Shown in pieces: positions 27,240-60,349 of a stretch of DNA of 64,000 nucleotides (within the stretch, counting starts at the first letter, position 1; each line of letters starts with the position of its first letter). The position numbers and the translations under genes are program-made. Where the stretch lies: contig CM082578.2 in NCBI GenBank assembly GCA_040954595.2, positions 525,740 through 589,739 of the forward strand, in the 5' to 3' direction. The stretch is from Balanoglossus misakiensis (Eukaryota; Animalia; Hemichordata). The notes under the pieces are model-generated. The model worked only from the letters and a program-made list of their open reading frames with translations. It was not told where the DNA came from and searched no databases.

Positions 27240-30200
27240 TCACAGGTATATGTATCCACCAAGTCGTTCTGGCGGTTGTCGCTGTCGTCTTGGATACCGC
27301 TGACTCTGTGGGGATGACAGTGGGACGGACGTTTTTGGCACGTCTTCTTGATGTATATCGTCATATTTTGTAGCAGGCGAGAGGTCACCAACCTCAGGAT
27401 CGCCTTCATCGTAAGTCAAGTAACTATCAGCTGGGCCTTGTTTTGTGCAATCACTGGTGGCCGCCTCCAGTTGGCCTAGGTCACCTTCAATTTTGTCTTT
27501 GACTGTCTCACGCCAGTCAGTCGCTTGGGTGCCCTCGTAGGGTTTCAACCTGTCATAGTGTACAACTTTCGGTTTGGAGTATTGGCTGCGTTGTATGCGA
27601 AACGTAACTTCGCCCAATTTGTTGATTATGAGGTAGGGACCGTCCCATTGTCGGAGTGTGATCTTTTTCGACTTTCCTCGCTTGAATGCCTGGACTTTCA
27701 ACCAGACAAATTGGCCGGGCTGTAACTGGCCGCCATGCACATTGACTTCGTAATGACGTTCCTGGGAGATGGCACTTTTCTGAAGTTTGTCTCGTGCGTG
27801 CTCTTGGGCACATTGCAGTCTTTCCCGAAGTTTGAGTGCGTAGTCTGTATTTATATCCGCCTGCTCCGGCAACGGTTCGTGTGTCAAGTCGAGTGGCAGT
27901 TGTAACTCGCGACCCAACATGAGCATGTTCGGGGTCTCACCTGTACTTTCTTGCGTTGAGCTTCTATACGCCATCATAGCGTAGGGGATGACGAGGTCCC
28001 AGTCTTCTTGGCTTGGATCAACTAAAACTGATACTGTCTGTACGAGTGTCTTGTTAAAACGCTCTATGTAACCGTCGGACTTTGGGTTGTTTGGGGTCGT
28101 TCTCGTCTTGTTTATACCTAGCAGCTTGCACGTCTCGGTTACCACGGCTGACTCAAAGTTGCGCCCTTGATCAGAATGAAGGTGTCGGGGGATGCCGAAC
28201 CTGCAGATGAACTCGTCCACCAGTTGTTCTGCTACTGTTGTCGCCTCTTGGTTTGGAATGGGGTAGCATTCGATCCATTTAGTGAAATAGTCTCCCACTA
28301 CTAGTATCCAACGACTTTTTCGTTCCGTAACAGGGAGAGGTCAAAGGATGTCAAACGCGACTCTTTCCATGGGGGCACCTACTATATATTGCTGAATCGG
28401 CGCACGCCTTTTGCGACCACCGCCTTCCGGGATGCGCATGTGTCGCACTGTCGGACCATGGATCTGAGGTCGGCAGATAGTCCATACCAATAGTATCGCT
28501 GGCGAACTTTCTCACGGGTTTTGAAGACACCAAAGTGGCCTGCAGTTTTCGAAGAGTGAAGCTCTTCAAGAACATCCGGCTTTAGTGATGTGGGAAGTAT
28601 GAGCAGTAGGTGACTATCACTGATGCTTGTAGACTCCCAATTACGATACAAAACACCATTGCGTAGCCGCAGCTGATCCCACATATTCCAATATGCTTTA
28701 GTGGCTGGAGACCAAGATGACACTGTCTTCCAATCTGGTTTACCACCGTCTTGTTCGAGTGTTGTCAAGACGGGGCGGATGTTAGGATCGTGGAGTTGTT
28801 CTTGTCTAAGGAAGGCAGAGTCCCAGCACAGTTTGAAAGTCACCGTTTTGATCAGATGCTCAGTTGTTCTTTGCCTGGTGACCATCGCATTACCTCGTGT
28901 CGATGCTTGTGTGGAATCTGCTGTTTCATCGAGTGATTTTGGTAAAGTCATGTCGTCTGCATAGGTCTGGGTTCCTGCATCAATGGTTGTTTCCATCTGA
29001 CGACTTGTCGATGTACTGTTGGGGGTTTCGGTAGATGCACAGCTATTCAAGTAGGCACTTGCACCAGTCTGTGAACCATGCTTCAGTCCACACTGCTGAC
29101 AAGGGCGTCTGGATAGGCTGTCTGCATTCGTATGCTACTTTCCTGGACGGTGCTCAATTGTGAAGTCGTATTCACCGAGCACTTGCATCCACCGAGCGAG
29201 CTGTCCCTCCGGTTCCTTGAAGTTTAAAAGCCACCTCAAAGAACTGTGGTCTGTCCTGAGGGTGAAGTGCTGACCATACAGGTACGGCTTAAAGTGTTTG
29301 ACAAAGTGGACAACAGCCAGTAACTCTTTGCGTGTTACACAATAATTCCGTTCTGGCTTTGAGAGGCTTTTACTGGCATAGCACATCACTCGCTCCATAC
29401 CATCTTGGATCTGTGATAAAACTGCACCTATACCATAAAAAACTGGCGTCTGTATCAAGTATCATGGGTGCTCCGGGTAAAGGGTAGGCTAGTATAGGGG
29501 CGTTAGTCAAATTCTGTTTCAAGGTCTCAAAAGCCAAGTCACACTCGCTGTCCCACTCGAAATGTCTGCCCTTCGCTGTCAACTGAGTCAGTGGTTTGGA
29601 CACTGTGGAGAAGTTGGGCACAAAACGGCGATAGTAGGATGCTAAGCCGAGAAATCCACGCACTTCATGCACGTTGGTTGGGGGAGGCCAGTCACTGACG
29701 GCTTTTATCTTGTCTGGGCTGGTTTCGACGCCTTGTTCCGACACTGTATGTCCCAAGTATTCAACTTGGTGCTGAAAGAGGTGACATTTGCTGGGCTTGA
29801 GCTTCAGACCTGCACAACGTAGGCGATGAAAGACCGTCTCTAATCGTTGTAGCATCTGGTCTACTGTACAGGAATACACAATTATGTCGTCCAAATAGAG
29901 AAGCAGGATGTCCCACTGAAGTCCGGACAGCACATGTTCCATAAGTCGTTGGAATGTCGCTGGTGCATTGTACAGGCCAAAAGGCATGACCTTCCATTGG
30001 AAGAGCCCACCCCAGGTAGTGAAGGCTGACTTTTCAACCTGCCAGTATCCGCTCGTCAAGTCTAACGTGCTGAACCATCTTGCACCAGAAAGAGCATTGA
30101 TGCTGTCCTCTATCCGTGGAATGGCATAGGCATCTTTCCTGTTTATGTCATTCAGCCGGCGGTAGTCCACACAGAACCTGGTACTGTTGTCTCTCTTTTT

Positions 30201-31661
30201 CACAAGAACCACTGGTGCAGCCCAGGGACACTCCGTTGGTTCAATCACCCCCTTTTCCAACATCTCGTCGACGAGCTTCGCCGTTTCATTACGGGCCCAT
30301 GTCGACTGGCGTCTAGGTTGCTGTCGGATCGGTGGGTGATCTCCTGTGTAGATGCTATGCTGGGTTACGTTGGTGCGACCAACATCATTTTTGTCACAGG
30401 AAAATACGTCTTGCCATCGGTTAAGAAAATCAGACAACTTCTTGACATGGTCTCTGCCAACAGAAGCAATACTCTCGTCTAGCAAGGGTTGCAGATGTGT
30501 AGGCACCGCACTGACGGGTTCATCTGTTGCTTGATATTTGGAAGGGCAGAGGTTGTTGACATTTCGTGGTGGTTCGCTTAAGTCGACCATGGTGGCTAAA
30601 GCAATCGCTGTTCCCCTCAGAATGATTTGAGCATTCGGGCCAACATTCATAATGCGGACTGGCACATGTTTGTGGCGGACATCAATTAGTACTCTGCCAA
30701 CCATGACCCCTACAGTTGAAAGTTTACTTTGTGTGGTTGGTTCCACCTGTCCGAGCCGAGCTGGACCAAGTGGCCTGGACAATTTGCAAGTGACGAGCAG
30801 TTCATGGCCAGCCGGCACTGCGGTGTCTCTTGTTGCAATCACCCGAGCGCACAAGTGGCCACCTCTTCTGTCGATCAGTGGAACGCTTCCCTCGTGGAAC
30901 CCTAATGTCAATGAGTGAGTACGGATTTCGGCCGGGGCTGTAAGGATGTAATCATTGCCTAGCAATACATCCTCCTTAATGTCGGCAACAATCGCTCTTA
31001 TAGTAGTACTATTTGGGCCGACTCTGATGACGAAGTCGGCTTCTCCTCTGGCTGTGAGTGGTGTGACCCCGTCCGCCTGTACAGCGTCTATCGTGATGGG
31101 AAGTAGCTGAGGGCGGCTGCGTGGAGCCATAGCTTTGTAGACCCGATCGGAGATTATGGTTATTTCTGAACCACAGTCAATGAAAGAGACCACTGGTTTC
31201 TCATGAATCACTGCCGAGACATAGAAGGCTGATTTCGCTGGTTGCAATGTTGTATCATCAGCTGCAGTGTGTGTTGATAGTAAATCGGCATTAACCTGAT
31301 GTGGTGGGTCGGTTTTGTCAAAGTCTGATTTCATGTTACAATCAGGCTTCGGCGTCACAGTCCTGCCAGCGGGCAATGGCCCTTGGTTGACCACGCGTGC
31401 AGGGTAGAAGGCGTTCGCATTGTCCCGTACCTTACCCAAATCGGCCGGTTTCCCTTGCTGTTGGTTAGGTGGGAAAGGAACACGGGGTGCCTCCCCTGTC
31501 TGACATTTGCTGTTCACTGGCTGTATTTGGTCCCACCATTGCTTGGTGGTGGTTGTGTCACTCGTGGGTTGTGCTAGTTGGTGATGGCGGATGGGTTGTT
31601 GGACCCTTGGTTGTTCGTAGACTGGGAATTGGCCCACATGCCCAGTCTGTTGTCGTTTCCC
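27240..31661 (-). pseudogene. Gypsy pol (protease, RT, RNase H, integrase), disrupted
   Basis: FIDCGS protease; YLDD RT; DTDAS and TDHSSL RNase H; HHCC (H..GHFG..CDTC) and DDE integrase (DYFTKW, SDQGRNFES, IERFN). Frameshifts near 29440 and 28400, stop at 29135, short in-frame deletion at GYWQVE^KSAF. Confidence 0.93.
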
Positions 31662-33972
31662 GACGATTGGTTATGAGGGCAATGTCGGCGGATGTGGCCG
31701 GGTTGGCCGCATCCAAAGCATCTCGCTTGTCTGCTCCTTTCTTCTCGCTTTTTCTGTTCTCCACCCATTTGTAGCTGTAGCTTTTGCATAGCAGCTATGA
31801 GGGTTGGTATTGTAGTTAAGTCTTGGGGTGTTTCCATGCCAGTCAACCAAGCGTCGTTTTCATTATCTTCAAACTCGATGTGGCGTGTATATTGTCGCTT
31901 TTGACCAGACTTTTCTGCTTCTGCTTGGATGTAGGCTTCGATGGAGACTGCCGTCTGTATAGCTTCATCCATGCTTCGAGGCCGCTCTCGGTGCAAATCC
32001 ATCCGAATATCCGGATCAGGGATGGCTTCAGTAAAATACTGACGAGCCAGTCGATCTACAGCTTCTGCTGGTAGTTCCGGATACGCTAGCTCAGTAAGTT
32101 CCTGTATTACCTGCCCCAAGTCAGGTATGGATTCGTCTCTTCGTTTCTTACGACACCGTAATTGCCATAGATACTTTTCAGCTTGACCTGACGTCCCATA
32201 TCGCTGGTCTAATAACTTGACCAAAGTGCTATACTCAACTGCGGTGATGTTAGGGACCCGTGTTAGAACTTTCTGGGCTGATCCTAGTAGCGATGCTGCC
32301 AGAAACTGTGCCTTTTGATTGTCCTCCCACCTGTTGATTGTTGCACATGACTCAAAATGCTTCAAGTAATCTCTCCATTGCGTACGACCATCAAATCGAT
32401 CGGGCGTAATCGATGGTTTTGTAGGAAAGGTAAAACCCCTTTCTTCAAATTGCCTCCTGCCTACAAGGCGGGACTCCCGTTTCAAGGTCGGACGAGGTCG
32501 GTCTACTTGCCAGTATTCGGTGTGTTGACCTGGTCCCTTTTCGTCATAGAAGGTGCCGGCCAATTGTTGACTTTCTTCTCGTGGTCGCGTTTGTGATGTG
32601 CCTTTTCTATTTGCTTCAGTCGGTCGGACATCACCGTTGTCTGGAGGATGATGAAGGGAGTTGATAGCCCCGTTCATATGATGTTCCTGCCAGTTCTGAG
32701 GTTGACGTCCAATATGCTGTGATGGGAGGTACCTTGGAGGTGTGTTGGTTGGGCTGCAGTCTCTGTTTGGCGCGGTGACTCCCTGTCGCTGACCAGGTTG
32801 TAGCTGTCCACGTCTGTAGCCCGCGAAATCGTCCTCCCAAGAGTTCTCGGCGAAATGGGATGAATGGCCTGCCAACATTGTATGAGGTCGTCGTTCATCC
32901 GGTTGTAAAGAGGGGATATTTTTTTCCGTTCTTTCGTTTACAGGCAGGCGGCAACTACCTGTTGTTGGCCGTTCAAGGCGGCGTTTTTGCCCCCCGCTAA
33001 GAGCATACATTGGCTCCGTCGACCCTGTGTGGCGTTGTGGTTGGACGTCCACCACCTGGGACATATAGTATTTCTTGATGCGGCCGGACTGTTCCAACCA
33101 CGATCTGCTGTCCGACCATTTGTTGGTAATGCAGGTGTACGTGCAACATTGGCTGGTAGAGGGTATCGTTGTTCGGAAGGAAGACAGATTAAATTGGGGC
33201 CAAACAACTGTTGGTCAGAGTTTTCGTATGGTGTACTCTGAGTCCAAAGCTGTTCATGCCTACCTACATAGTGGTCTGCTTCTTCAAGAGAAAAGTGGGC
33301 GTTGTCGGCTTTTCTCTTTGGTCTGGCTCCCTGTTGAATTTGTCTATCACTCGCCGTTGGGATGTATAAGGCGTCGCGAACTGTTCCCCTTTGTTGCGCT
33401 GCAACTTGTTGATGATGAGTTCCGTCGTCCTCATAAAGTTGTTGCTCACTGAACGTTGCTTCCGAAACTGCGTGTCGAGTACGAGTTTGACTGCTTGTTT
33501 GATGTACGGGCATGTCGTCGCCCGTCGGCTGTGCAGCTTTTTCGGTTTCGTCTGTGTGAGACGTAGTTTCTTCGTGCGTCGGCGCCCTTGCGTCGTGGCT
33601 GACAACAGCACCCGTTGATTCTGTTCCAATAGGGACGTGACAATCAATGTCGGTCTCTATTTTAGGAGGTTGAATATCTCTGTCAAAGTCTGTTGCGTCG
33701 TTCTGCTGGCCCAGGCCTTTACGAATGCTGCCCTTGACCGCATCGAAAACCCACCTCAAGGTTCCCAACGGTCGGCGCCCTGGTGTGGAGAAATTGCCGG
33801 AGTCGTACCCGCTTTCTCGGTGTGGACTCTGGTCTGAGGCGGTCGGGGTTGCAGGTTGTTCCCGCGACGATTGTAACCTCGGTTGGAAGGAGATGACATC
33901 GTCGGTACTGTCGGTTGGAGGCTCGATGTCGGCCAACGTCTCTCCGGTCGCAATCTCCGTTGCCATTTCCAA
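31574..33972 (-). CDS. Gypsy gag with long low-complexity N-terminus, split into two overlapping frames near 33000
   Basis: PDRFDGRTQWRDYLKHFE...W capsid-like motif and CFGCGQPGHIRRHC zinc knuckle. Confidence 0.85.
31600..31661 (-). promoter_or_regulatory. -1 ribosomal frameshift signal (G GGA AAC) with downstream H-type pseudoknot
   Basis: Heptamer at 31661-31655 is in the gag frame and a -1 shift enters the pol frame. Stem AGACUGGG/CCCAGUCU; loop UGGGCC can pair with downstream GGUCCA. Confidence 0.8.
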
Positions 33973-34088
33973 TAAATCACGGTGTGGTAAACCGCAATGT
34001 GCGATGCGTTGTCCTACCAGACAACGAAATCTAGTTGCGTCTCTGTAATTACCTGAAGGAGGTTGAGGTTTCTCTCAGCACGACAATC

Positions 34089-44365: not shown

Positions 44366-46593
44366 TTGGCCGATTACATAGGTATGCATATTGAAGTAGG
44401 ATGTGTCCTGTTGAGAGACATGTAAATTTTTATGCGTGGATTTTGTTTGAGTATTTATGTGATTCACATAGTGATTGGCTGATTATACAGGTGTGCGTAG
44501 TTGTATGGGATTGTCCTATTGAGAGACATGTAATATTTGACGAGTGATGAATTATGTATGAATACTGGGCAAAGGTGTTTCAATGGGAAACATGTGATAT
44601 AGTAATGATTATTTGATTATGCAGTTGTGCATGTGTGAAATTTGTTTTCTTTCCGGATGTTTATTTGATGTTATTATTTCGATAGCCCTTAGGTATAGTC
44701 AGCTCACTAAATGCTGGCTTGCCTTAAAAAAAGGGCCTTGGGCCAGAGAGGAAAAAAATCTTGTTCATCAGATTTTTTGGACCAAGGTCCAGGAGCGGCG
44801 AGCGAATATTTTTATTTTTATTTATTTTTTAGGCTGAAAGTAAATGCGGTTCTCTGGCATATTTGCACAGATGCAGAAAAGGCGAGATAATTGTTTCCCT
44901 TTTTACCAGAAATATCTCAGACAAAATACACTGATACATGTACTTGTAACTGAATTCAATACTATATTTCCCAACAATAACATAGGCAATTAACTTTACA
45001 GTTGGTGTTTGCACAACATATTCTGGCCACCAGCGGCAGTGACTAAGGATGTTGTAACACGGAAATAGAATATTTGCCGAGATCCCCCCCCCCAAAAAAA
45101 AAAATTCCAAATCATCCAAAGTAGAAGCGGCGATTCCGATGAACAATTTATTTTTTCTTCCTGGCCTTGGGGGTTTAATTATAACCCCCTGGTTGTGTGT
45201 CTTATGCTACTGTTATTTTCTTTATCGACAAAATTATTGATAGTATTTTCTCCCGTGGTTTTTCTTCTTAGTCTCTTAACCCGATGTCTGGTATGAGTGC
45301 ATGGGAACGTAATGTGATTTTTGATCCAAGAGAGGCAATGAAAGACAGATTGCTTAGACAAGTTCGATGGACGGGATGGAAAGCCGGGCTCGAGTCTCCT
45401 CCCGTGCTGATATATGGCTGTGGGGTTGTTTTGTGTTGATGAGGTTTGGAGAGAAGGCATGAGAGAAGGGGTGATTATGAATCTAAAGAAGTATTATTTG
45501 GGGGGACCAGGGAGTCCTTGACCACTCCACTACTAAATCATACGAAAACATACTATGCATTGGGGATAAGGAACTATCTACACTGCGTAGTGATTGGTTG
45601 ATTGAATATGAATATTCATAAGATACCTATATATAATTGGAGTGCGCATACACCCAGGTGTCACATCACATCGAATGGTGCATGGAAAACTCCCGCCCAC
45701 CCACCCAAAATCACTGTACCGCGAGAAGTGGCAACCTGTTTTTCTTCCTCTCTGCGTAACACAAGGGTCCCCAACCAGGGGGTCCTTGACCTCTCCACTA
45801 CTAAATATATAATATTTAAAGCCTTATTACTTAGCTCAATGATATAGCCTATTCTTATAAGGAATGGGTAAGGGTATCTTTTTAATAGGCTAAACCATGC
45901 GCAAAATAGCGTTAACAAGCTTTAGGGAGGGAGGGAGGGTCAGGCTAAATAAAGTACCTCCACAACCCCACGCCTACCCCCAAATGTACGCGCTTCTACC
46001 GTTGTCTCTGAGTCTCCTCCGTTATCGAGTGACAAACTAAGTGTACCAATTATGTTGCCCTATTTATACTCATGCCTTATAAATATTTATGAGATGCGTA
46101 AAGATATCGCTGCGTAATGAGGCTTTGAATAATATAATATTTAAAGCCTTATTACTTAGCTCAATGATATAGCCTATTGTTATAAGGAATGGGTAAGGGT
46201 ATCTTTTTACCGTCCACATACTGCCTAAAGCGTAATAATTCTACCTAAACCATAAAACACACAACCCATACCTAAATCAATCAAAAACCTTTATTCAAAA
46301 TAATTCCCCCATTCCTCATAACAATAGAAACATTCCCAGCAATTAACATATGAGAACATCATTACATCCAAGGAATAAAAGTGGTAACCATACACATTCA
46401 AACTGAAAAATGGAGCAGATTCATCTCTAAAATAATCACATTGATATTTAATGAAACTAATAGAAATTCATAGCAGTCTCCAGACACAAAATATCAGATG
46501 AACAAACAAGTGGCAAATATTCACCCTATACTACAGGTACATTGTACAGTCAAATTACAAATCCAAATGTAACAGTTTTCACAGAAGAACCAG

Positions 46594-47892
46594 CTACTGA
46601 TAAAAGGCTGGTCTACAAGAAGTTACAATATTCTCCAAATTTTCATATTTAAGAGTAATATCATCACGAGTATCAATAGCATCTATTAACCTAGAAGCAG
46701 GAGCCTCTGCTTTTCCAACCTTATGGAGCTGCATATAGTGGTTTGCAGTCTTTTCTGATCTCCAACCAACATGGTCCATGAGATCTGAGATCTGTGAACC
46801 TGCCAATGCTAAAATTATTGCACATGCACTCCTAAAGCTGTGAGGAGTTTCACCTTGGTCAATATTTAACACTTGCAAATATGTTTTCAGACGTTGGTAA
46901 ATAGCTTGCGAGGATATGGGTTTTTGCACAACTTGACCACATGGGGTTGTTGGACGAAAAAGATAACCAAACCGTAAATCTATATCAAAACTTCTCGCTA
47001 ACTTAATGTATTCCTCTATCGTACTCACGGCGCATAACGTCTTGTCATTACAACGCTTTATTGTGAATAAATTACTCTGTTCACCTCTTAAAGATTTACC
47101 AAAAGTATGATTAAATATGAAACCAGAATTATCTGGCAACCTTAAGATTTCCTGAGTTTTGATCTGGCCAAGATCTCCTGCCCTATCTCCGGACATCATT
47201 AATACCTTAAATATGGTAATATCTTTAGCATAGACGTATGCTTCAACACGTGAAGTGCTAGACACTAGTTTACTTAAAATGTAATCTAGAAGGATCCTTA
47301 TCTTATTAGTAAAAATCGGCTTGGCCTGTTTAGGAGTTATATGTGCTTTGGCCTGCTCTTCACCGGATTTCTTAATATATCTGTCAACCAAGGTAGAAGC
47401 GATTGGGTTTGTCTTACATAAACCCAGATTTAGCATCACCCCATAAAAGGACTTTAATTTAGCAGCTATATTTTTTAAGGTGCCTAAACGTAGACGTTTA
47501 GGACATTCACACTGATCAAACTTTCTGGTAACACTACCCAGGAACGGACATGTATTTATATGAACCTGAGTTCGAGCATGTTTGTCTTTATGGATAAGAA
47601 ATCTGACAATATCTACTGGCATCGCTTGAGTAAGGTCTTTAGGCTGAGGGAGTCCACTTAAGAAAGATTCCAAATTTTGTACCAATTTGTCTTTCTGGAT
47701 TTCATAAGCTGATTTTGAACCCAGTAGATCATTCATTCGAGCATCGACGATATCAAGATCAACCTGAGTGCGCCCCCTCTCGGACGGATAAGGAACTGAG
47801 CTGACTACTTTGGCTGAGCAAATATGGCACTGTTTTTTGTCCTCTTGACCAGGAGAATTGCAGAGTAACTGAGTACCACATAACCAACATTC
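46594..47892 (-). CDS. Zn-ribbon + tyrosine recombinase exon
   Basis: Frame opens right after ttcattAG at 47893: ECWLCG...QCHIC, then YR with GDRAGDL, TPHSFR, HVGW, NHY. First Met (47736) lies downstream of the Cys motif. Confidence 0.9.
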   Translation of the reverse strand, partial: ECWLCGTQLLCNSPGQEDKKQCHICSAKVVSSVPYPSERGRTQVDLDIVDARMNDLLGSKSAYEIQKDKLVQNLESFLSGLPQPKDLTQAMPVDIVRFLIHKDKHARTQVHINTCPFLGSVTRKFDQCECPKRLRLGTLKNIAAKLKSFYGVMLNLGLCKTNPIASTLVDRYIKKSGEEQAKAHITPKQAKPIFTNKIRILLDYILSKLVSSTSRVEAYVYAKDITIFKVLMMSGDRAGDLGQIKTQEILRLPDNSGFIFNHTFGKSLRGEQSNLFTIKRCNDKTLCAVSTIEEYIKLARSFDIDLRFGYLFRPTTPCGQVVQKPISSQAIYQRLKTYLQVLNIDQGETPHSFRSACAIILALAGSQISDLMDHVGWRSEKTANHYMQLHKVGKAEAPASRLIDAIDTRDDITLKYENLENIVTSCRPAFYQ

Positions 47893-47979
47893 CTAATGAA
47901 ATATAAAATGTAGAAGTACACAACTTTAATCTTGAAACAGCTGTATTATTCAATAGATGAAGCTTTTAATAGTAATTGC

Positions 47980-50900
47980 CTAACTGCCAAAAGTTGCTGC
48001 AAATAACTTTCCTTTAGTTTTCGCGTGAACATAGCCATTTTTTGATGGGACAAGAATGAAATTATCCTCTCCTTTAGACGCAACTTGCACACAGACTGAT
48101 CCATGTTTCTTAACTAATGGCCACCATAAAGGCGTAAAATTGTGGACTTCTAATAGAACAGTGGCTGATAAACCTTCCGAAATTACATGTCTCACCACTG
48201 GCAATTGCAAGCATACAGGGGGAAATATGAACAACCTATCGGCTTCTTGAAACGTATGTGCAAAGAAATTGACCCCTTCACAATTAGGTTGGGGATAAGG
48301 AGCTACGAAACGAGACAATTTTGCGTTGGAACATATGGCCATCGCATCTACATCATATGGACCAAACTGATCATTTATTCTCTGCCAAGCCGTACTAGTA
48401 AGGGTGGTGTCATTTTCGTTTACATTTCTCGATACATAGTCAGCAAGATTGGCTGCTGATCTAACATGGGATAAATTCAACCATACATTTCGTTCTACAG
48501 CTACGTGAAATATATTCTTGAGGATCTGATTGAGTTTTAATGACTTTGAACCAGGAGAACCATTATTCCACGCTTGTACTAATACAAGTGAATCTACAGC
48601 CACATCTAATCGTAGATTATCTATTTTATCTCCAAGAGCTAACAAAGTGCGGTGTTATTACGGCCGCCCGTCGTCCTCCGGACGTTCACCTCCTTCGGAC
48701 GCTTCTGTGGGGAATCAGCCACGTCCGAAGGCTGACGGCGTACATTCTCTCCATCTCCTTCTCCACCCAACATATTCATAAAGTCCGAGAGAGGTACCCG
48801 GCAGATCGTAAACCTTTCGTAGACAGAGACTTACAACAAGTTCTCCGAGTAACACAAAGTTCTGGTTTATTACTGGTCACACGTAAGAATTACACGACTC
48901 GATCCATGCTCGTTGACTCCCATCACGGATCTCCCGTTATAATAGTGTGATCTCAAATTTCACCACACCTTATTAATACGTTAGTCAAGTATTAAGTCAT
49001 AAAAGGAACACGTCATCTTAATATTTCTTAAACATGAACTTAGCGCGTGATATCTCTATCTCGTTCTGACATGTATCAATTACACAATCTTGTTTACTCT
49101 GGGTCAAGTACCTATGTCAATACTGGACTAAAACCATACAAGTGAATGACTTCTTACTTAATCATAAACAAGATCTATGATCGTTAAAACTCAATCGTGA
49201 CACTTCCCACTTTTCCAATAATCGAACTTCCACGTTCGATCAAAGAAAGAATGAAAACGAAAACCAGGTCTGCGCAATCGGTTTTAAATAAACTACGTCA
49301 AAATCAAACTCAATAATCACCTTTAAAATATCACAGCCTGTTCAAACAAATTGAAGAAAATCTCATAAAACGTTTTCAATGTCAAAATTCAAAACGACTT
49401 CACTGTTCTGACTTCTCGTCAAAGAGTGTCTCTTTTCCAGTGCAAAATTCAACAGTCAATAACCGCGTAAAAAAATCAAGTCTGATAGTTCTTGTGTACA
49501 AACATAATACACTTCATCATACTGTCACCTCCAAAAATAACCACGACAATGGAAACGAATTCTTATGTGAAAGGATGCGTAAAACTACAATAAAATCAAC
49601 TACACTCTGGGACTTCTCTCTTGTCCCTCGTATGAACTCACATGCCAACTCAAGGGGCCATTTTCATACGCCAGACCGTCTCCCTTGCGGTCATCAAAAC
49701 ATCACGACTTCATCACCAGACCGTCTCTCTTGCGGTCATCACAAAAACTTCAACAACTCCTCAAAAACCTATAAAACTTCACTACACTTCACGGCATCAC
49801 TTCAACAAAAGAATACACATTTACAATGTCGAAAACAAGGCAAAAACTTGGTGGAAAACAATATCAAATCAAAAGCGGTTAAATAACGGTCAGTCAACTC
49901 ACGTCTACTAACTCACGTCAGAGTAGACAAAGAAAATACGATCACGCAATATTTCAATGATCAAATCTCCCAAACTATAGATTAAAAAGGCTGATTATTC
50001 AGTTCAATATCATTCTATCACAGTTCTTTTGCGATAGCAGACGATTCAAGAGTCTTCCCTTCTTCATTCCACGAGACCTCTTTTCTTCGTCGCCCGAACT
50101 GCTTCAACTACATGCTTCTGGATACGACGCCCCTCTGATCAAACAACAGATCCATCGTTGAAAACCCGTCCACGCATTCCATGCAGTCAACAGTCAGCAC
50201 CAACCTTTTTTCTGTTCTCGTTTCCTTCTGAAGCAGACCATTGGATCGTCAGTTTCGCCAGCTTTTTCTCTTCTTATTTCTTTCTCGGTTCAGGAATCAG
50301 TTGCAACATCTCTGCCTACCCGGAATCTAACACCATGTTGTTACGGCCGACCGTCCTCCCTCGGACGTTCACCTCCTTCGGACGCTTCTGCGGGAAATCA
50401 GCCATGTCCGAAGGTTGACGGCGTAACTTCTCTCCATCTCCTTCTCCACCCAACATATTCATAAAGTCCGAGAGAGGTACCCGGCAGATCGTAAACCTTT
50501 CGTAGACAGAGACTTACAACAAGTTCTCCGAGTAACACAAAGTTCTGGTTTATTACTGGTCACACGTAAGAATTACACGACTCGATCCATGCTCGTTGAC
50601 TCCCATCACGGATCTCCCGTTATAATAGTGTGATCTCAAATTTCACCACACCTTATTAATACGTTAGTCAAGTATTAAGTCATAAAAGGAACACGTCATC
50701 TTAATATTTCTTAAACATGAACTTAGCGCGTGATATCTCTATCTCGTTCTGACATGTATCAATTACACAATCTTGTTTACTCTGGGTCAAGTAGCTATGT
50801 CAATACTGGACTAAAACCATACAAGTGAATGACTTCTTACTTAATCATAAACAAGATCTATGATCGTTAAAACTCAATCGTGACAGCGGTGTAGAGCTTC

Positions 50901-52396
50901 TGCTTCTTTTACGTTTATAGACTCATTCCGGAATGAATCCTCCCAGAAATCGCTTATTTCAACTGACATACTCTCGTTAACGGTGGTATCGGGATGTAAA
51001 ACAGCCCCCCATTTATAAGCGCTAGCATCTGTAAACAATTTAAGAGCATAGTGTCTTTCTTTAAGCCATTTGAACGGACCTGCATTAACAATTATGTTTT
51101 GCCATTCCCTTAGCTCCTCTGCTAACTCTTGCCTTATTGGGACAAGAAATGTTGCTTTTCCCTGAGCTTTTGACACCGATAGAGCCATTTGACGAATGTA
51201 TAATCTTGCAGATGGAATTGCAAGCGCGAAAGACATACACTTCCCCATAACTTTTTGAATCAGAGGGAGAGGGACTGCCCGTTTACTAAGAATATCATTC
51301 GTTAATTCCAAAAATCTATCAATCTTAATCTGTGGAACAATGAACGCCTCTAAAGGCGAGTCGACCTGCATACCTAACATAACTAAAGACTTAACGGGTG
51401 TTAGGATACTTTTCTGTAACGCTAAGAAATAACCCGCCAGTACACAAATAGAGGCTAATATAAAAGCTGAAGCTTCTGCGCGTTCAAAAGGAGACAATTT
51501 CCTTTCTAACCGGTCGTGACATACCAGTAAAGGTCCCACATGGCGATCGTCAATATATTGGATACATGGAACCCCAAGCTTTCTAGCATAACTAGTGACG
51601 GCGTAACCAACAGTATGATAAACATAAGCTGAAAGCTTCCACCCAAACGGCAAAGTATTACACACAAACCAAACTCCCCCCATTGAAAACCAAAGTATGT
51701 TCTATCCGGTTCATATACAAGAATGTGGTCATAACCACTTTTATCATCACACTTGACTTGATAGTCATCTTTGTGCAGGTAACGACTAACATCAACCGAC
51801 TTGTCGAGCTTGAACGGAATATCTTGAATCCATAGATTTAAGTACCTCATGTCTATACACATCCTTGGCTTCTTGGGCTCAACAACGATTGGCATCACAA
51901 CATGAGGAGGAGGATCACGACCGACAATACCCCAAACCGAAACAGCACCTGTTTTTAATCGGTCAGCTATCGTCTTTGCTATAAATGGAGCAAAATCCTT
52001 GTTGCTAGGGGGATTGTTAAACTGTCTAGGAGGAGGCAGATCATGGAAAAACTGTTGTCCTTTAAAACCTCCTGAGAAATGGCGTAGATATGGAGACACT
52101 TTCACACCATTCGAAATCCAAGACATGATTTCATGTTTATTTACCAGATCCATCGTAAGCTCATTCCATGCATCTGGGTATTTGTGCAGCTCGCCAGCAA
52201 TAAACTGATCTGGGTTTCTGAATGACATTTCACTAAGAGATACTTTTCTCAAACCATTGGAGACCAAAGATAACACTTCGAACATGTTACCATCAGGAGC
52301 CTGTCCGGGGGTGCCCCCAAGCGTTGTCCAATCATACGAAGTTTTTGGAAGTAGCTTGATATTGACAGGATTCTTTAACTCCCAAACTTGAACAAT
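47980..52396 (-). pseudogene. pol exon: RT, RNase H and Dam-like MTase; frameshift at ~51680 and interrupted by an LTR element at 48653-50885
   Basis: KPRMCID, DDKSGYDH, LPFGW, YIDD, FTDAS, INVKEAEAL; removing the insertion and one TSD restores EALHRTLLALG; MTase VDAMA and FIFPP. Confidence 0.9.
48653..50885 (-). mobile_element. Non-autonomous LTR retrotransposon (two 550-bp LTRs, 1.13-kb non-coding interior)
   Basis: LTRs 48653-49202 and 50336-50885, TG...CA ends, TSD GCGG; PPT GGAAAAGTGGGAAG next to 49203; TGGTGTTAGA PBS-like start at 50335. Confidence 0.93.
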
Positions 52397-52675
52397 CTAA
52401 TGAGGAACAAACAGAAACTAGGGCTATAATATAAACCAACAGTGCATTCTAGATAACATAAGGGGACACCCCCGGACAGGACCATGCGAAAGGCCGGCCT
52501 GCAAAATGCAGAGGGCACAGAGAGTGGCCCCCCTATCCGGGAGTTTATTGAACTATGAAAAATGGACTACTTTAAAGGTGAGCACATTATAAGCAAGAAT
52601 ACCCAAGACAAAACAAACACATTCATCATGCTAAACCCTTGTTTTATTATGCAAACATCAAACGTTATGAGACAA

Positions 52676-52717
<42 letters not shown>

Positions 52718-52832
52718 TAGGCAAATTATCTTTTACACACTCATAACAATGACACTCTAAGTGAGAATCAAATACATCTGAACTGGCCAATTCACAATTC
52801 TGTACAAGTCAGTCATTCCATCATAATTCAGA

Positions 52833-54614
52833 CTACTTCTTATCTGGACAATTTCTGGCTATATGACCTTTGTTTCCACAAACGTAACACTTAATGTCTC
52901 TTCCTCTGCCTTGAGGGCATTGAAATTGATAAGGACGAGAATAACTGCGCGTGTTCTTTAGAAATTTGCCCACTTTTGACGCGATTTCTTCTTCCTCTTT
53001 GTTGCCAAGTAGAAGGAGGACTAACTTTCCCGCGTCACTCCCAAAATCATTACTCTCAAATTGTGCTAGCACAGCTCTGAAACGTTGAAGTTTCGAGTGA
53101 TTCACCAAGGTAGCCCTGTCTACCAACACTCTCAGGGCATTGATGATAGCGTATCTCGATGCGCCAGAATGTGCCATATCCATAACTTTTTGCAGAGCTT
53201 CATCGACATTCGCAGAGTCTGCCGCTTTCTGTAGCTTTTCCACTTTTTCTTCCAATTGTTTCAAAGCACACGCCACTGGCATCTGAAAAATAGTGCATAA
53301 ATTATTTCAACACGTGAGCAAGCATAACACTTCTTTTCATTTTAAAGTTATGCAATTACCCTTCTTAGCACCATTTTCACTAAACAAGACCACTTGTTGC
53401 ATACCTCAGCGTATGCAAATTTTACAAAGCAAGACCACTTGTTGCATACCTCAACGTATGCAAAATTTTACAAAGCGAGACTACTTGTTGCATACCTCAA
53501 CGTATGCAAAATTTTACAAAGCAAGACCACTTGTTGCATACCTCAGCGTATGCAAATTTTACACGGCAAGACCACATGTTGCATACCTCAGCGTATGCAA
53601 ATTTTCACAAAGCAAGACCACTTGTTGCATGCCTCAGCGTATGCAAATTTTCACAAAACAAGACCACTTGTTGCATACCTCGGCGTATGCAAATTTTCAC
53701 AGAGCAAGATCACCTGTTGCATACCTCAACGTATGCAAATTTTACAAAGCAAGACCGCTAGTTGCGTCCCTCAACGTAAGCAAAATTACAGTTTAAAAAA
53801 AAAGTAAAAATAGAGGGAAATAAAGATGGTGTCCCTGTAACGCTGAGCAAAAACCGTAACTTCGCACAGGTGAACAAAGACATAACTAAGGAAAGGAAAA
53901 AACTACTAACAAAAAGTATAAAACGCTAATCTACAACACCTAAAAGCACATGTAACAAGCCGCTATATAACAACCACATGTATACAAAAAACAAAAGAGA
54001 AAACTGAATGAAAAGGAAAAGGAAAAAATAAGAATACGACAAGACAGAATACAAAGGTATGCTACAAAATAATTACTAACAAGAAAATAAAATAAAACAG
54101 GCGCTAAGGAGAATTGCAAAATCGAAAAATTTTCAAACTTATCGCACACACCAATGGAACAAAGAGAGAGAAAAAAAAATGAAACAACGTACACAGAACG
54201 ACTACGATCGAATTAAAAAACCAAAAAGTTCAAAAACTGAAAACTCATGTTCTCAACGAAGATAACAAATAACCGTGTCTCAACGTAACCCCAGAAACAT
54301 TGAAACTTGGCCGACCGCATATGCACGATAAAAAGGGGTAACTCGACAATCAGGCAATGTAAAACTTGAACAGAATGAAAGAAACACATGATATTGAGTC
54401 TCACCTGAGATTCAGATTCTTTAGAGGTTGTTTCAGTAACTACTACAGGTGTAGGAACTTGTGCGCTGGTAGAAGGGTTTTGAGCCGGAGTCCTCACAGC
54501 ACCAGGATTGTCTTGAGTCGATACCTGAGTAGCAGCATTACCAGAAATTGAAGGACGGGACAAAGCCGAAGCAAAAGACCTGGTTGCATCTGCTACAGTG
54601 TTAGGACGATCCAT
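52833..54614 (-). CDS. Spliced gag: leader exon 54614-54405 (70 aa) + exon 53282-52833 (149 aa, CCHC knuckle)
   Basis: Donor CAG|GTGAGA at 54405/54404, acceptor TTTTTCAG|ATG at 53283/53282, phase 0; CYVCGNKGHIARNC. Confidence 0.78.
53385..53790. repeat. ~45-bp tandem repeat, ~9 copies, inside the retrotransposon intron
   Basis: CAAGACCACTTGTTGCATACCTCAGCGTATGCAAATTTTACAAAG units at 53385, 53430, ... Confidence 0.95.
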
Positions 54615-54653
54615 TCTGTCGTGTTACTGTTTCTCCTCCGTTATCGAGTGACA

Positions 54654-54687
54654 AACTAAGTGTACCAATTATGTTGCCCTATTTATA
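54654..54687 (-). promoter_or_regulatory. TATA box and initiator in repeat A1
   Basis: TATAAATAG (54687-54679) and TTAGTT (54659-54654) about 28 nt apart, ~40 nt upstream of the leader ATG. Confidence 0.6.
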
Positions 54688-55676
54688 CTCATGCCTTATA
54701 AATATTTATGAGATGCGTAAAGATATCGCTGCGTAATGAGGCTTTGAATACATACGAAAACATACTACGCAGTGGGGATAAGGAACCAATTATCTTTGTC
54801 TGTGGTATTACTGGCATTTTTTAGGGCCCAAGCGCACGCTAATTACACTTCGCACCGTAAATGATTTCGTCTGAGGTGACAACCCATTTATGCAGCCGGT
54901 CTCCACAGCCCAATTAGCCAGGGACATTTTGGGACATATGCGATAGATTTGTCCTTTTTCAACTGTTCCGGCAGAGATTATTGGGAATTCTCCCTTGATG
55001 TGCCGAATAATTTTCTCAATTGGCCAAAAATTTGGAAGGTCAACATAACAACAGCCTTCCTCATTGCTTCAAACTCTGGCTTCAGGTTGTAAAGCCGAAA
55101 CATAGCATTGCTATGCGAATTTCGTAAATATAGTTAGCTCTATAATACAATGAGAGGACCATTGCATCCACCGGTAGCACAAACATAATTGACATCTTGT
55201 CCTGAAAATAGTGCTGTCTGACGATTTCCCTTTCCAGCGTACCAGTCAGACCAAGTTAGCACTGGCCGGACTGGCTTACCTTTTTGTATTTTTATTTACT
55301 GTTGGGTTCAATAGAGAGAACAATCACGAGAATTAGTTTAATGAGGACAAACCAGGATTTCACATGTATTTTAGATTTTATTTTATTTGAAATACTATTG
55401 CTTCACCCTTATCTCGTCCCCCATTTAATTTTTAATGTACTTACCATTATTTTGTTAACTTAAATGATTTTGATCTGAGAAAGGGACGTATACGTAATTA
55501 CCATACATTATGTATTGCTACGCTCTCTGACATTGGGGCAAGAAGCAGATGTGTGTGCTGTATTCAACTGCAGACATCCTGGAAGCAAAACTCTGTGAAC
55601 CCGTGGTGTTTACGAAAATAACATGTATTTACATCAAGGCTTGATAAGAAAGATGACATTAAAATATGTAATAGAC

Positions 55677-57987: not shown

Positions 57988-60349
57988 GTATATATATCGT
58001 ATGACTAACGAGGCGACATCCATAATATCAACCGAGGACGAAGTCCGAGGTTGATATTATGGATGACGCCGAAGTAGTCATACGATATTTAACATACACA
58101 ACGAGTGAAAGGTGCAGGCCCCTCTACAAGTAAACACCCCTCAACCGACAATACAGTGTTTAAAAATCTTTTGTATGGACCCTAAGCGGTTGATATCAGC
58201 CTAACTTTCAAAATGGTATGGTCCTACTTACGGAAAGTATTTAATTATTCAGCGTTTTGCACCTGGGATGCATATATTGCCTAGTTCAACCAATTATTGT
58301 TTAGTAATAAGCTCACATGCAATGTTTCTTCCAATTGTATTGGCTGTGCATGTTTTACACATGCACAATGGCATATCTTATAATATAAATGCACGGCCAC
58401 GAGGCACAATTTCTTTCTACCTGAACGTGTCATAGTGGCAGCATGGCGCATGAGGTGTATCCCGATTTTTCTGATATCTCTGATGAAGAGTTAATTGAAG
58501 CCTCACAAGCAGCAGAATATTTGAACGAGCTTGGCTTCGAAAATATCGATATAGCAGTCAGGAGCATTCCTTCGGTGAGTCACGAATTCTTTTATTCATT
58601 CCGCCATTTTCACCTTTTTATCGTGTACGTTGTCGTTGAACATGCAAGTAAGAATGTATATTGAATCATTTTTTATTTCGTTAAAGGACATTCCCAGAGG
58701 GCGGTTTGCTGACCCAGTGTCGGATTCCTGCGTACAGGGGGTTGCAAAAAATTCCATTCCCAAGAATACTCAACGCCGTAATATGTGGGCGCTACGGACT
58801 TTCAACGAATGGGCCATGGCCCGAAATAATACTCGCGTCGAGTCGTCAACTGATGAGAAAGTGAAGATAACTCGTAGTATAGAAACGATGTCCACAGACG
58901 ATTTGCAGTATTGGCTTAGCAAGTTTGTACTGGAGGCGAGGAAAGTCGACGGACACCCCTACCCACCAAAAACTGTACTCTCATTGATAATGGGCTTGCA
59001 AAGTTATGTATGTTTCGAAAGACAAACCCGGACAAACTTTCTTGCCGACCAAGAATTTGTTGGTTTCCGTCAGGTTCTTGATGCAGAGATGAAGAGACTG
59101 TCTAGCATTGGTATCGGAACAAACAAGAAACAGGCTGAGGCAATATCTACTGAGCAAATCGATTTACTGTGGAAAATGAAACTACCAGGCGACCATTCCC
59201 CCAGGGTTCTTGTCCGCACAATGGTATTCTTGAATGGGAAACATTTTGCCCTCAGAAGTGGACAGGAACACCGTGCGCTTCGCTTTGACCCACCTCAGAT
59301 TACTTTGCGTGAACCTGATGGCGACACTCCGTATCTGCTATACGTGGAAGACGTGTCAAAAAGCAACCAAGGTGGACTAAAACACATGAAAGTTCGTCGA
59401 AAGGAAGTGAAACATTATGCAAATACTGATAATCCAGCGAGATGTCATGTTCGGCTATATAAAAAATACGTTTCGCTGTGTCCACCAAATGCGAACAAGA
59501 GTACGTTCTACTTGCAACCCTTGCGAAAATACGAAGAATCGTCGAAGGTGTGGTTCAGCAAACAGGCTATGGGCCACAACTCCCTGCAACCTGTGGTACC
59601 TGAACTATTTAGAGCAGCTGGGATAAATGGTCACTTTACCAATCACGGCCTGAGAGCTACAGCTGCTACGAGCCTTTTCCAAAACGGAGTTGATGAACAG
59701 TAAATTATGGAACGCACAGGACATCGTTCTGTAGAAGGCGAGTACATGTATCTCCTTTTTTCAAAACAGTTTTAAAAAGTAAATGCACTTTATGATCTCT
59801 TGATTTACTGATTTATTGTTTACATTTCAAGGTGTTCGTAATTACAAGCGTTCGAGTCAGGAACAACAGAAGAGGGTGATTGACATCTTAAATGGTCCAG
59901 CTGCAACCAAAAGCCATCGCGAAACCCCAATTAAAAGTGATAATACCGACGTCAAACAACATGAAATCTCCAGCAACGTCAAGTCCAATGTGGTTTACAA
60001 CAACTGTATATTCCATATTCAAAAATAGAAATTGAATGTAATTGAATAAATATTAAGATGTTTAAATGTTACATTTTGTAGTTTTGTCTGCATTTTTATT
60101 TGGAGATAGGTCGTGATATTGTCTCGAGGCGTAGCCGAGAGTCAATATCACGACCGTACCGCCAAATATTCATTTTCGAGGCATGATGGCTGAAATATCA
60201 CGAGACGAAGTCGAGTGAAATTTCTGCTATCATGCCGAGAGTTCAATAGGTTGATATCACCCCACCCCAAAAATATCACCTCAAAATGAGGTTGCTCTCT
60301 AAAATTTCAACCGCTAAATCTATTGTACTATCTGTGACGAGTTGTGTAT
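57988..60349 (+). mobile_element. Crypton DNA transposon (DUF3504/KCTD1-ZMYM-QRICH1-like YR) with terminal hairpins
   Basis: Absent from the paralogous empty site ATTTTAC|TAACAGTTC at ~57015-57030; GTAT at both ends; long hairpins at 57994-58088 and 60109-60240. Confidence 0.88.
58443..60028 (+). pseudogene. Crypton tyrosine recombinase, three exons (58443-58574, 58687-59737, 59832-60028), premature TAA at 59701
   Basis: IPKNT...WA...F..W, FVLEARKVDG.PYPP, FALRSGQEH, SKSNQGG, FTNHGLRAT, GHRSVEG|VRNYKR. Exon phases are compatible; second donor is GC. Confidence 0.87.

Follow-up and report, generated by a model that had tools for sequence, protein, structure and literature searches.

Alternative splicing from one coding leader as the probable expression strategy of an ALOG-YR retrotransposon in Balanoglossus misakiensis

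Introduction

Introns have been reported in a few retrotransposons of the DIRS order. This study concerns a tyrosine recombinase (YR) retrotransposon of that order in the hemichordate Balanoglossus misakiensis. The sequence analysed, called the window below, is a stretch of 64,000 nucleotides from assembly GCA_040954595.2 (contig CM082578.2, positions 525,740 to 589,739 of the forward strand). The retrotransposon lies on the minus strand of the window, from 54750 to 45807, and its edges are split direct repeats. It very probably uses alternative splicing to express all three of its proteins from a single promoter and a single coding leader, the leader being joined to gag, to pol, or to a second exon within pol and from there to YR. 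This reading is carried by the splice signals and their phases, the non-overlapping open reading frames (ORFs), the contig joints leader>gag and D2>YR (D2 being a second donor, inside pol), the leader>pol and D2>YR junctions of RefSeq proteins, and conservation in relatives.

The ALOG DIRS1-type retroposons of Iyer and Aravind 2012 (PMC3537659) share with this element, in the sections cited here, the Gag zinc knuckle, RT-RNase H (RT, reverse transcriptase), a degenerate adenine methylase (likely present here), direct repeats, occurrence in marine invertebrates, and a YR with an N-terminal zinc ribbon (without the F in the window copy), an ALOG domain and a catalytic domain. Their metazoan copies are described there as disrupted, and 5' ORFs in Ectocarpus as fast diverging. 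The terms 'splic', 'intron' and 'exon' do not occur in the main text of that paper, whereas the 5' region of the present element is a leader exon followed by an intron, and the stops that bound its ORFs are splice acceptors. PAT-like elements of the echinoderm form (Pat1) share the A1...B1-A2-B2 repeats, a methyltransferase after RNase H (likely, in degenerate form, in the present element), the Gag zinc knuckle and internal repeats downstream of YR. In the cited sections on them, no splicing programme is described and the ORFs of YR elements are frequently overlapping (PMC4157794, PMC3266345, PMC6681497).

In its working, the element appears most similar to the foamy viruses and, for gag, to the plant Ty1/Copia element EVD. 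Foamy viruses, as the cited part of PMC7828637 describes them, likewise produce Pol from its own spliced RNA and not as Gag-Pol, and use one promoter for singly and doubly spliced RNAs, with the unspliced RNA as the genome, a role that it would probably also have here. Unlike foamy viruses, the element has no env, long terminal repeat (LTR), protease or DDE integrase; its Gag is spliced too, the shared first exon is coding and the recombinase has a separate RNA that is spliced twice. In EVD, alternative splicing is coupled to early termination and yields a gag-only RNA, and Pol comes from the unspliced RNA, whereas here none of the three proteins could easily be made from unspliced RNA (PMC5580714, cited part). 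Penelope-like elements also keep introns after retrotransposition; they differ, according to the cited part of PMC8557442, in having a single ORF, a 5'-UTR (untranslated region) intron, a GIY-YIG nuclease and no alternative terminal exons.

A native splicing programme for DIRS-order elements was not found in the sections of the literature searched, with Repbase and supplements outside the scope and two mentions of 'splic' in PMC4157794 unassessed; term searches were negative in the sections searched of PMC7192593, PMC3783388, PMC12477816, PMC9341512, PMC13465315, PMC9940879 and PMC8547959. The element is of a known kind, its splicing feature is real and conserved, and its expression strategy is one not found in the literature searched.

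Splice sites and reading frames

The exons and the predicted promoter are as follows.

54687-54680, minus strand: TATA-like TATAAATA inside the split repeat A1
54659-54654, minus strand: initiator (Inr)-like TTAGTT inside A1; predicted +1 at 54657, about 30 nt past TATAAATA
54405..54614, minus strand: coding part of leader exon 1, from the ATG at 54614, 210 nt or 70 codons
53283..54404, minus strand: intron 1, 1122 nt, GT..AG, T-rich, seen in the joint of contig run X10
52833..53282, minus strand: gag exon, 149 codons, CCHC knuckle (zf-CCHC, E=1.3e-6)
47980..52396, minus strand: pol (RT, RNase H, weak Dam-like methyltransferase), broken in the window copy
52145..52396, minus strand: exon 2, from the pol acceptor to donor D2, 84 codons, seen in RefSeq proteins, the joint of contig run X4 and contig ends
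46594..47892, minus strand: YR exon, from the YR acceptor; CxxC...CxxC ribbon, ALOG domain, tyrosine recombinase

The original prediction had described a 70-codon leader with a donor at 54405, three phase-0 acceptors at 53282, 52396 and 47892, and a TATA/Inr pair in A1, and all of these coordinates were recovered. The leader is rich in S, T, P, A and Q, contains an F-[AV]-x-[AE] motif and ends in the phase-0 donor D1, CAG/GTGAGA after 54405 (the slash marks the splice point), which was joint first among 659 GT sites by a crude score. By the same score the gag acceptor TTTTTCAG/ATG (53282), the pol acceptor A2 CTCATTAG/ATT (52396) and the YR acceptor A3 TTCATTAG/GAA (47892), all in phase 0, ranked 10, 8 and 22 of 244 YAG sites, respectively; all splice-site scores given here are of this crude, letter-frequency kind. 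For pol and YR, the TAG of the acceptor is itself the in-frame stop bounding the ORF, as had been proposed and as the reading frames bear out. Among the other ORFs of at least 60 aa in the window, 6 of 198 open with a TAG and an acceptor score of at least 2.5, a cut-off chosen after the scores for pol (2.8), YR (3.7) and gag (only 1.9) were known.

The gag, pol and YR ORFs follow one another in that order without overlap, as rechecked on the minus strand, whereas the DIRS1 copy of the window has overlapping ORFs (3-1505 and 188-2395); this difference, too, had been noted correctly. The CxxC...CxxC ribbon of YR occupies residues 2-25 and the first Met is residue 53, in agreement with the claim that the ribbon lies 5' of the first Met. 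The unspliced RNA has 23 ATGs ahead of the first gag Met, 47 ahead of that of pol and 157 ahead of that of YR.

The second phase-0 donor, D2 (CTG/GTAAAT after 52145), had been overlooked. An in-frame Met is present in pol at residue 38 (52285), ahead of RT. At 52498, 102 nt before the pol acceptor, an AG with a higher score (TTTTGCAG/GCC) leads to a stop; it lies within a predicted stem-loop, a fold that may mask it.

Protein models of sister copies

The best match of the YR was a Ptychodera flava RefSeq protein (98% identical). It belongs to a cluster of eight RefSeq proteins (10 accessions) on at least five scaffolds, and the D2/YR junction (...ELTMDL/ECWLC...) is present in all eight. The leader is joined to the pol acceptor in five of the eight, two of which are full 586-aa products. 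Two further RefSeq proteins have the leader joined to pol and then read through 52145, so that 7 of 10 RefSeq proteins of sister copies contain the leader/pol junction. None of the 10 joins the leader directly to YR.

Each of the 13 sister-family RefSeq Gag proteins (51-71% identical) opens with a low-complexity leader of similar length. The F-[VA]-x-[AE] motif is common to the window leader and nine aligned sister-family Gag proteins and is absent from three ENA gene calls. Separately, a Pol relative (P0204) with a T/V/S-rich N-terminus is a possible leader+Pol model from another organism.

Transcript-like contigs and reads

Eight of the 24 listed runs were aligned, namely six contig runs and two read runs recorded as RNA. 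The leader>gag joint (53282/54405) was found in run X10 of study P4, with 1122 nt skipped, and the D2>YR joint (47892/52145) in run X4 of study P2, with 4252 nt skipped; both introns are GT..AG. Flanking contig ends lie at the predicted branch points 53286 (X10) and 47893 and 52144 (X4), and a further X4 contig ends at 52173. The YR contig of X4 ends at 47893, as the route via D2 predicts, and not at 47894, as expected for direct joining of leader and YR. One contig of X9 ends at 52398, the branch point predicted for leader>pol, and another at the predicted start 54657, which is a weak hint, RNA starts not being readable from contigs. The original prediction had named three junctions to look for in transcripts: 54405>53282 was seen as a single contig joint, and 54405>52396 and 54405>47892 were seen in no contig. 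Run X17, flagged as probably DNA, was unbroken through 54405, 53282, 52396 and 47892. The read runs X23 and X24 (6% of reads; 48 and 18 reads) gave no joint at a threshold of three reads and are too thin to judge.

A backward joint in X4 (54632>46014, back 8619) was considered as a circular intermediate and rejected, a collapse of the 118-nt A repeat being the simplest explanation. Such a collapse may also explain the leaders found downstream of YR in loci L001, L009, L013, L028, L055 and L059. The contig depth of X12 was 67 at 54250-54750 and 14-20 over gag and pol; open chromatin at the promoter or additional short copies could account for this peak.

Conservation in distant relatives

The relatives comprise 82 loci from metagenome contigs and contigs of metagenome-assembled genomes (MAGs), with about 35-45% YR identity (83 sequences including the window). 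The contigs are likely animal host DNA. The order of gag, pol and YR without overlap is kept in them. The best acceptor within 75 nt upstream of the ribbon was in phase 0 in 34 of the 37 relatives whose ribbon motif is intact (35 of 38 when the window is counted), and each of 25 clusters, window included, contains a phase-0 member. In 30 of the 37, the distance from this acceptor to the first Cys is exactly 14 codons. A Met between acceptor and first Cys was found in only 4 of the 34 phase-0 relatives. The Met with which database YR proteins begin ('MARLF...') was considered as a refutation and rejected, because only those 4 of 34 DNA loci have a Met there; the other N-terminal Mets of database YR proteins are likely alternative starts picked by bacterial gene callers.

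Leader-like exons were sought on both strands of the 83 sequences as ATG-opened stretches rich in P, Q, A, V, N and E that end in G/GT before T-rich DNA, with strand and phase left unfiltered. The 14 matches, from about 11 distinct families, lie without exception on the sense strand and in phase 0; when a TATA box and a strong donor were required, only two matches were obtained. The phases of leaders and YR acceptors and the rarity of a Met upstream of the ribbon are what the original prediction had led one to expect in relatives. Acceptors of the polypyrimidine-AG type also open pol in phase in many relatives, most of them without an early Met. A leader-like N-terminus was found in only 2 of 149 further Pol relatives, most of which are unspliced gene calls and hence uninformative. 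A search for relatives in viral contigs found none.

Three of the relatives (L080, L081 and L082) are animal-type spliced retrotransposons in bacterial MAG contigs, likely through host contamination. P0038 is likewise labelled Gammaproteobacteria.

Expression model and alternatives

In the proposed model, transcription would start at a single promoter, which likely lies in A1. Splicing of D1 to the gag acceptor would yield leader-Gag, with a predicted length of 219 aa, from an RNA that likely ends at an internal poly(A) site. Splicing of D1 to A2 with D2 unused would yield leader-Pol, and D1>A2 together with D2>A3 would give a three-exon mRNA for the leader, 84 pol codons and YR (586 aa). The spliced RNAs would be translated. 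The unspliced RNA, which would code for little more than the leader, would serve as the only template copied, because it alone would carry both the tandem array of intron 1 and the stem-loop between gag and pol; since the two would occur together only in unspliced RNA, they are candidate selection signals. The shared leader may bring Pol and YR into Gag particles, as a tag for co-assembly that would replace a Gag-Pol fusion. Exon 2 has in-frame Mets, and therefore YR needs splicing here but does not strictly need the leader ATG. No equivalent second donor was found in the relatives, which suggests that direct joining of leader to YR is likely the ancestral, general plan. The route via exon 2 is likely a feature of the window family, in which the 14-codon preamble of the YR exon has been lost.

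Several points weigh against this model. Three of the eight RefSeq YR proteins lack the leader and start at exon-2 Mets, a RefSeq leader+gag protein of the same family was searched for and not found, and the RefSeq introns are taken as gene models, which may or may not rest on reads. The contig runs are RNA by guess only, and joined DNA forms such as retro-copies could give the same joints. Splice joints occur in only two of the eight aligned runs, each as a single contig whose short side of 26-28 letters is below the 31-letter bridging rule. No leader>pol joint was found among the six contig runs, X4 contigs run unbroken across 54405 and 52396, and X12 and X18 contigs have no splice joint. 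Among the relatives, the thresholds of the leader scan were picked after three leaders were known. Of 18 loci, nine have a top-scoring pol acceptor that is in frame and open, four more fit when frameshifts are allowed, and five do not, including the window (AG 52498); the top gag acceptor fitted in 5 of 17 loci, with 9 of the other 12 added. A conserved counterpart of D2 in the pol of relatives was looked for and not found. The stem-loop was no better than shuffles in two of nine segments and marginal in a third, and its covariation is thin (3 of 15 pairs).

The original prediction had one donor serving three acceptors, with YR reached directly (54405>47892); on this plan YR would be 502 aa and D2 a minor or cryptic route. 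Its common leader is supported for gag (contig joint) and pol (RefSeq), and conservation agrees; its direct YR junction is not supported in the window family, where the only YR joint seen is 52145>47892. The direct junction would be in phase, and the relatives, in which no second donor was found, have a YR exon with its own 14-codon preamble, but the YR exon of the window family has only one codon before the first Cys, the junction is missing from all 10 RefSeq proteins and every contig, and the X4 contig end is at 47893. This exact plan is therefore improbable. An internal promoter in the gag-pol gap, which would make YR and perhaps pol, with YR started at an exon-2 Met, only D2>A3 spliced and the leader used for gag alone, appears less probable still. 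It would account for the three RefSeq YR proteins that start at exon-2 Mets and for X4, which has D2>A3 and no branch at 52396 or 54405. It does not account for the leader joined to pol in seven RefSeq proteins, the X9 contig end at 52398, or the in-phase acceptors that open pol in many relatives, most without an early Met.

The joints might also reflect host-side, aberrant or silencing-related splicing of dead copies, or gene-model artefacts, in which case unspliced RNA would yield the proteins through reinitiation, readthrough or internal entry. Most contigs cover the introns unspliced, joints are rare and the window copy is dead, as this explanation would have it. Accidental splicing is unfit to explain, however, why the 14-codon acceptor spacing (30 of 37), the donor phase of the leaders (14 of 14) and the missing pre-ribbon Met (30 of 34) recur across relatives, and we give this explanation hardly any credence.

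Splicing from a shared leader would explain, in a concrete and testable way, how Gag, Pol and recombinase can arise as separate proteins of a YR retrotransposon with neither frameshift nor overlap. On this reading, the annotated consensus ORFs of the ALOG-YR clade lack their true N-termini, and stops taken for inactivation can be splice acceptors. The element is a further conserved example of intron-keeping retroelements, with candidate signals for selecting unspliced RNA, and a set of P. flava RefSeq genes labelled 'uncharacterized' is thereby marked as encoding spliced transposon products.

More tentatively, and with somewhat more doubt than confidence, the same may apply across the clade: ALOG-YR retrotransposons of marine animals would share a non-viral RNA programme resembling that of complex retroviruses, with a shared leader tag, internal poly(A) ends of gag (often pol) RNAs, and packaging or priming signals only in unspliced RNA, to which the hemichordate family would have added the doubly spliced YR route. 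With such signals confined to unspliced RNA, a retroelement could keep three introns. In the hemichordate family, the doubly spliced route would then tie YR output to the pol acceptor.

Candidate signals in the unspliced RNA

Three features lie in intron 1 and between gag and pol.

53373-53787, minus strand: tandem array in intron 1, 46-nt unit x9.1 (TRF)
52544..52714, minus strand: region 3' of gag, with an A36 tract at 52679-52714 and AATAAA at about 52648 and at 52549
52468..52544, minus strand: predicted branched stem-loop between gag and the pol acceptor, z -3.3

All 8 loci tested, the window among them, have a tandem array at this position, and the arrays are unrelated in sequence. The region 3' of gag is a candidate internal poly(A) site for the gag mRNA, judged by its sequence. 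AATAAA or ATTAAA was found in the gag-pol gap of 12 of 12 loci and, after three near-duplicates were dropped, of 9 of 9 families, with 2.3 expected; for the window alone the signal was not significant (shuffle P 0.73). In the pol-YR gap, AATAAA or ATTAAA occurred in 19 of 32 loci.

The stem-loop had the best z among 197 windows of the element. A similar fold is predicted at the same place in several relatives and beat shuffles in six of nine segments. The stem-loop had no match in Rfam, and a profile built from five relatives matched only those and two close copies and missed the window hairpin. The priming of DIRS reverse transcription is stated as unknown in the cited part of PMC7192593, and the stem-loop is modelled here as a candidate packaging or priming signal.

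Classification and protein domains

A tyrosine recombinase instead of a DDE integrase, together with gag and RT-RNase H ORFs, places the element in the DIRS order. The repeat layout A1...B1 A2 B2 is that of PAT-like elements and is also found in L080. Ngaro elements have split direct repeats without a methyltransferase, and here a weak Dam-like region follows RNase H. DIRS1-like elements have inverted terminal repeats and an internal complementary region; the termini here are direct repeats, and no terminal inverted pair was present among the 25 longest of 45 inverted pairs. From its sequence, the element fits the ALOG-YR class and is PAT-like by repeat layout and the weak methyltransferase. 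Repeat and domain scans of the element found none of the LTRs, env and DDE integrase of Spumaretrovirinae, the likeness to which is in working only; the domain scan for DDE integrase (rve) gave no match.

In the YR exon, ALOG (PF04852, E=1.6e-17) lies N-terminal to the recombinase (Phage_integrase PF00589, E=1.4e-11), and the catalytic R, HxxR and Y positions are kept in the alignment with relatives. The ALOG-YR class has an N-terminal zinc ribbon of the FCS type; here the CxxC...CxxC ribbon aligns with the FCxxC ribbon of relatives, the window copy being without the F. The RVT_1 match was weak in the broken window copy (0.014) and stronger in the intact relatives L001 (1e-7) and L080 (4e-6). 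The Dam match after RNase H (E=0.0018) falls short of the Pfam cut-off, and this region is 23% identical (E=3e-4) to the C-terminal part of pol from the window's DIRS1 copy. A methyltransferase-like domain is likely present in degenerate form.

Element structure

The repeats of the element and the insertion in its pol are as follows.

54622-54750, minus strand: split direct repeat A1, 97% identical to A2
46132-46209, minus strand: repeat B1, 99% identical to B2
46003-46131, minus strand: split direct repeat A2, directly after B1 in the 46003..46209 block
45807-45884, minus strand: terminal repeat B2, matching B1
48649-50885, minus strand: nested non-coding LTR-type element in pol, TG-started direct repeats of about 550 nt

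The window copy is a damaged, dead member of its retrotransposon family, because its pol has a frameshift near 51675 and carries the 2237-nt LTR-type insertion. The nested element has a PBS-like (PBS, primer-binding site) TGGTG after its first repeat and a short target duplication. It was skipped by contigs in five of six contig runs and covered by none of the eight aligned runs, and is therefore likely rare or private to the window assembly. The retrotransposon itself sits within one unit of a local duplication of about 268 nt (45506-45806 and 54751-54786). The adjoining duplication unit approximates an empty site and has a short TATT/ATT core in common with the B1-A2 junction.

Other elements in the window

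At 1-2400 is a DIRS1-like element, truncated at its 5' end, whose pol and YR ORFs overlap and which has no ALOG match. At 27240-34074, on the minus strand, are the nearly intact ORFs (gag, protease, RT, integrase) of a Gypsy-like LTR retrotransposon. The segment 40077-40730 is presumably a Penelope-like RT fragment, and the 374-aa ORF at 58579-59703 encodes what we take to be a Crypton/DUF3504-type tyrosine recombinase-like protein.

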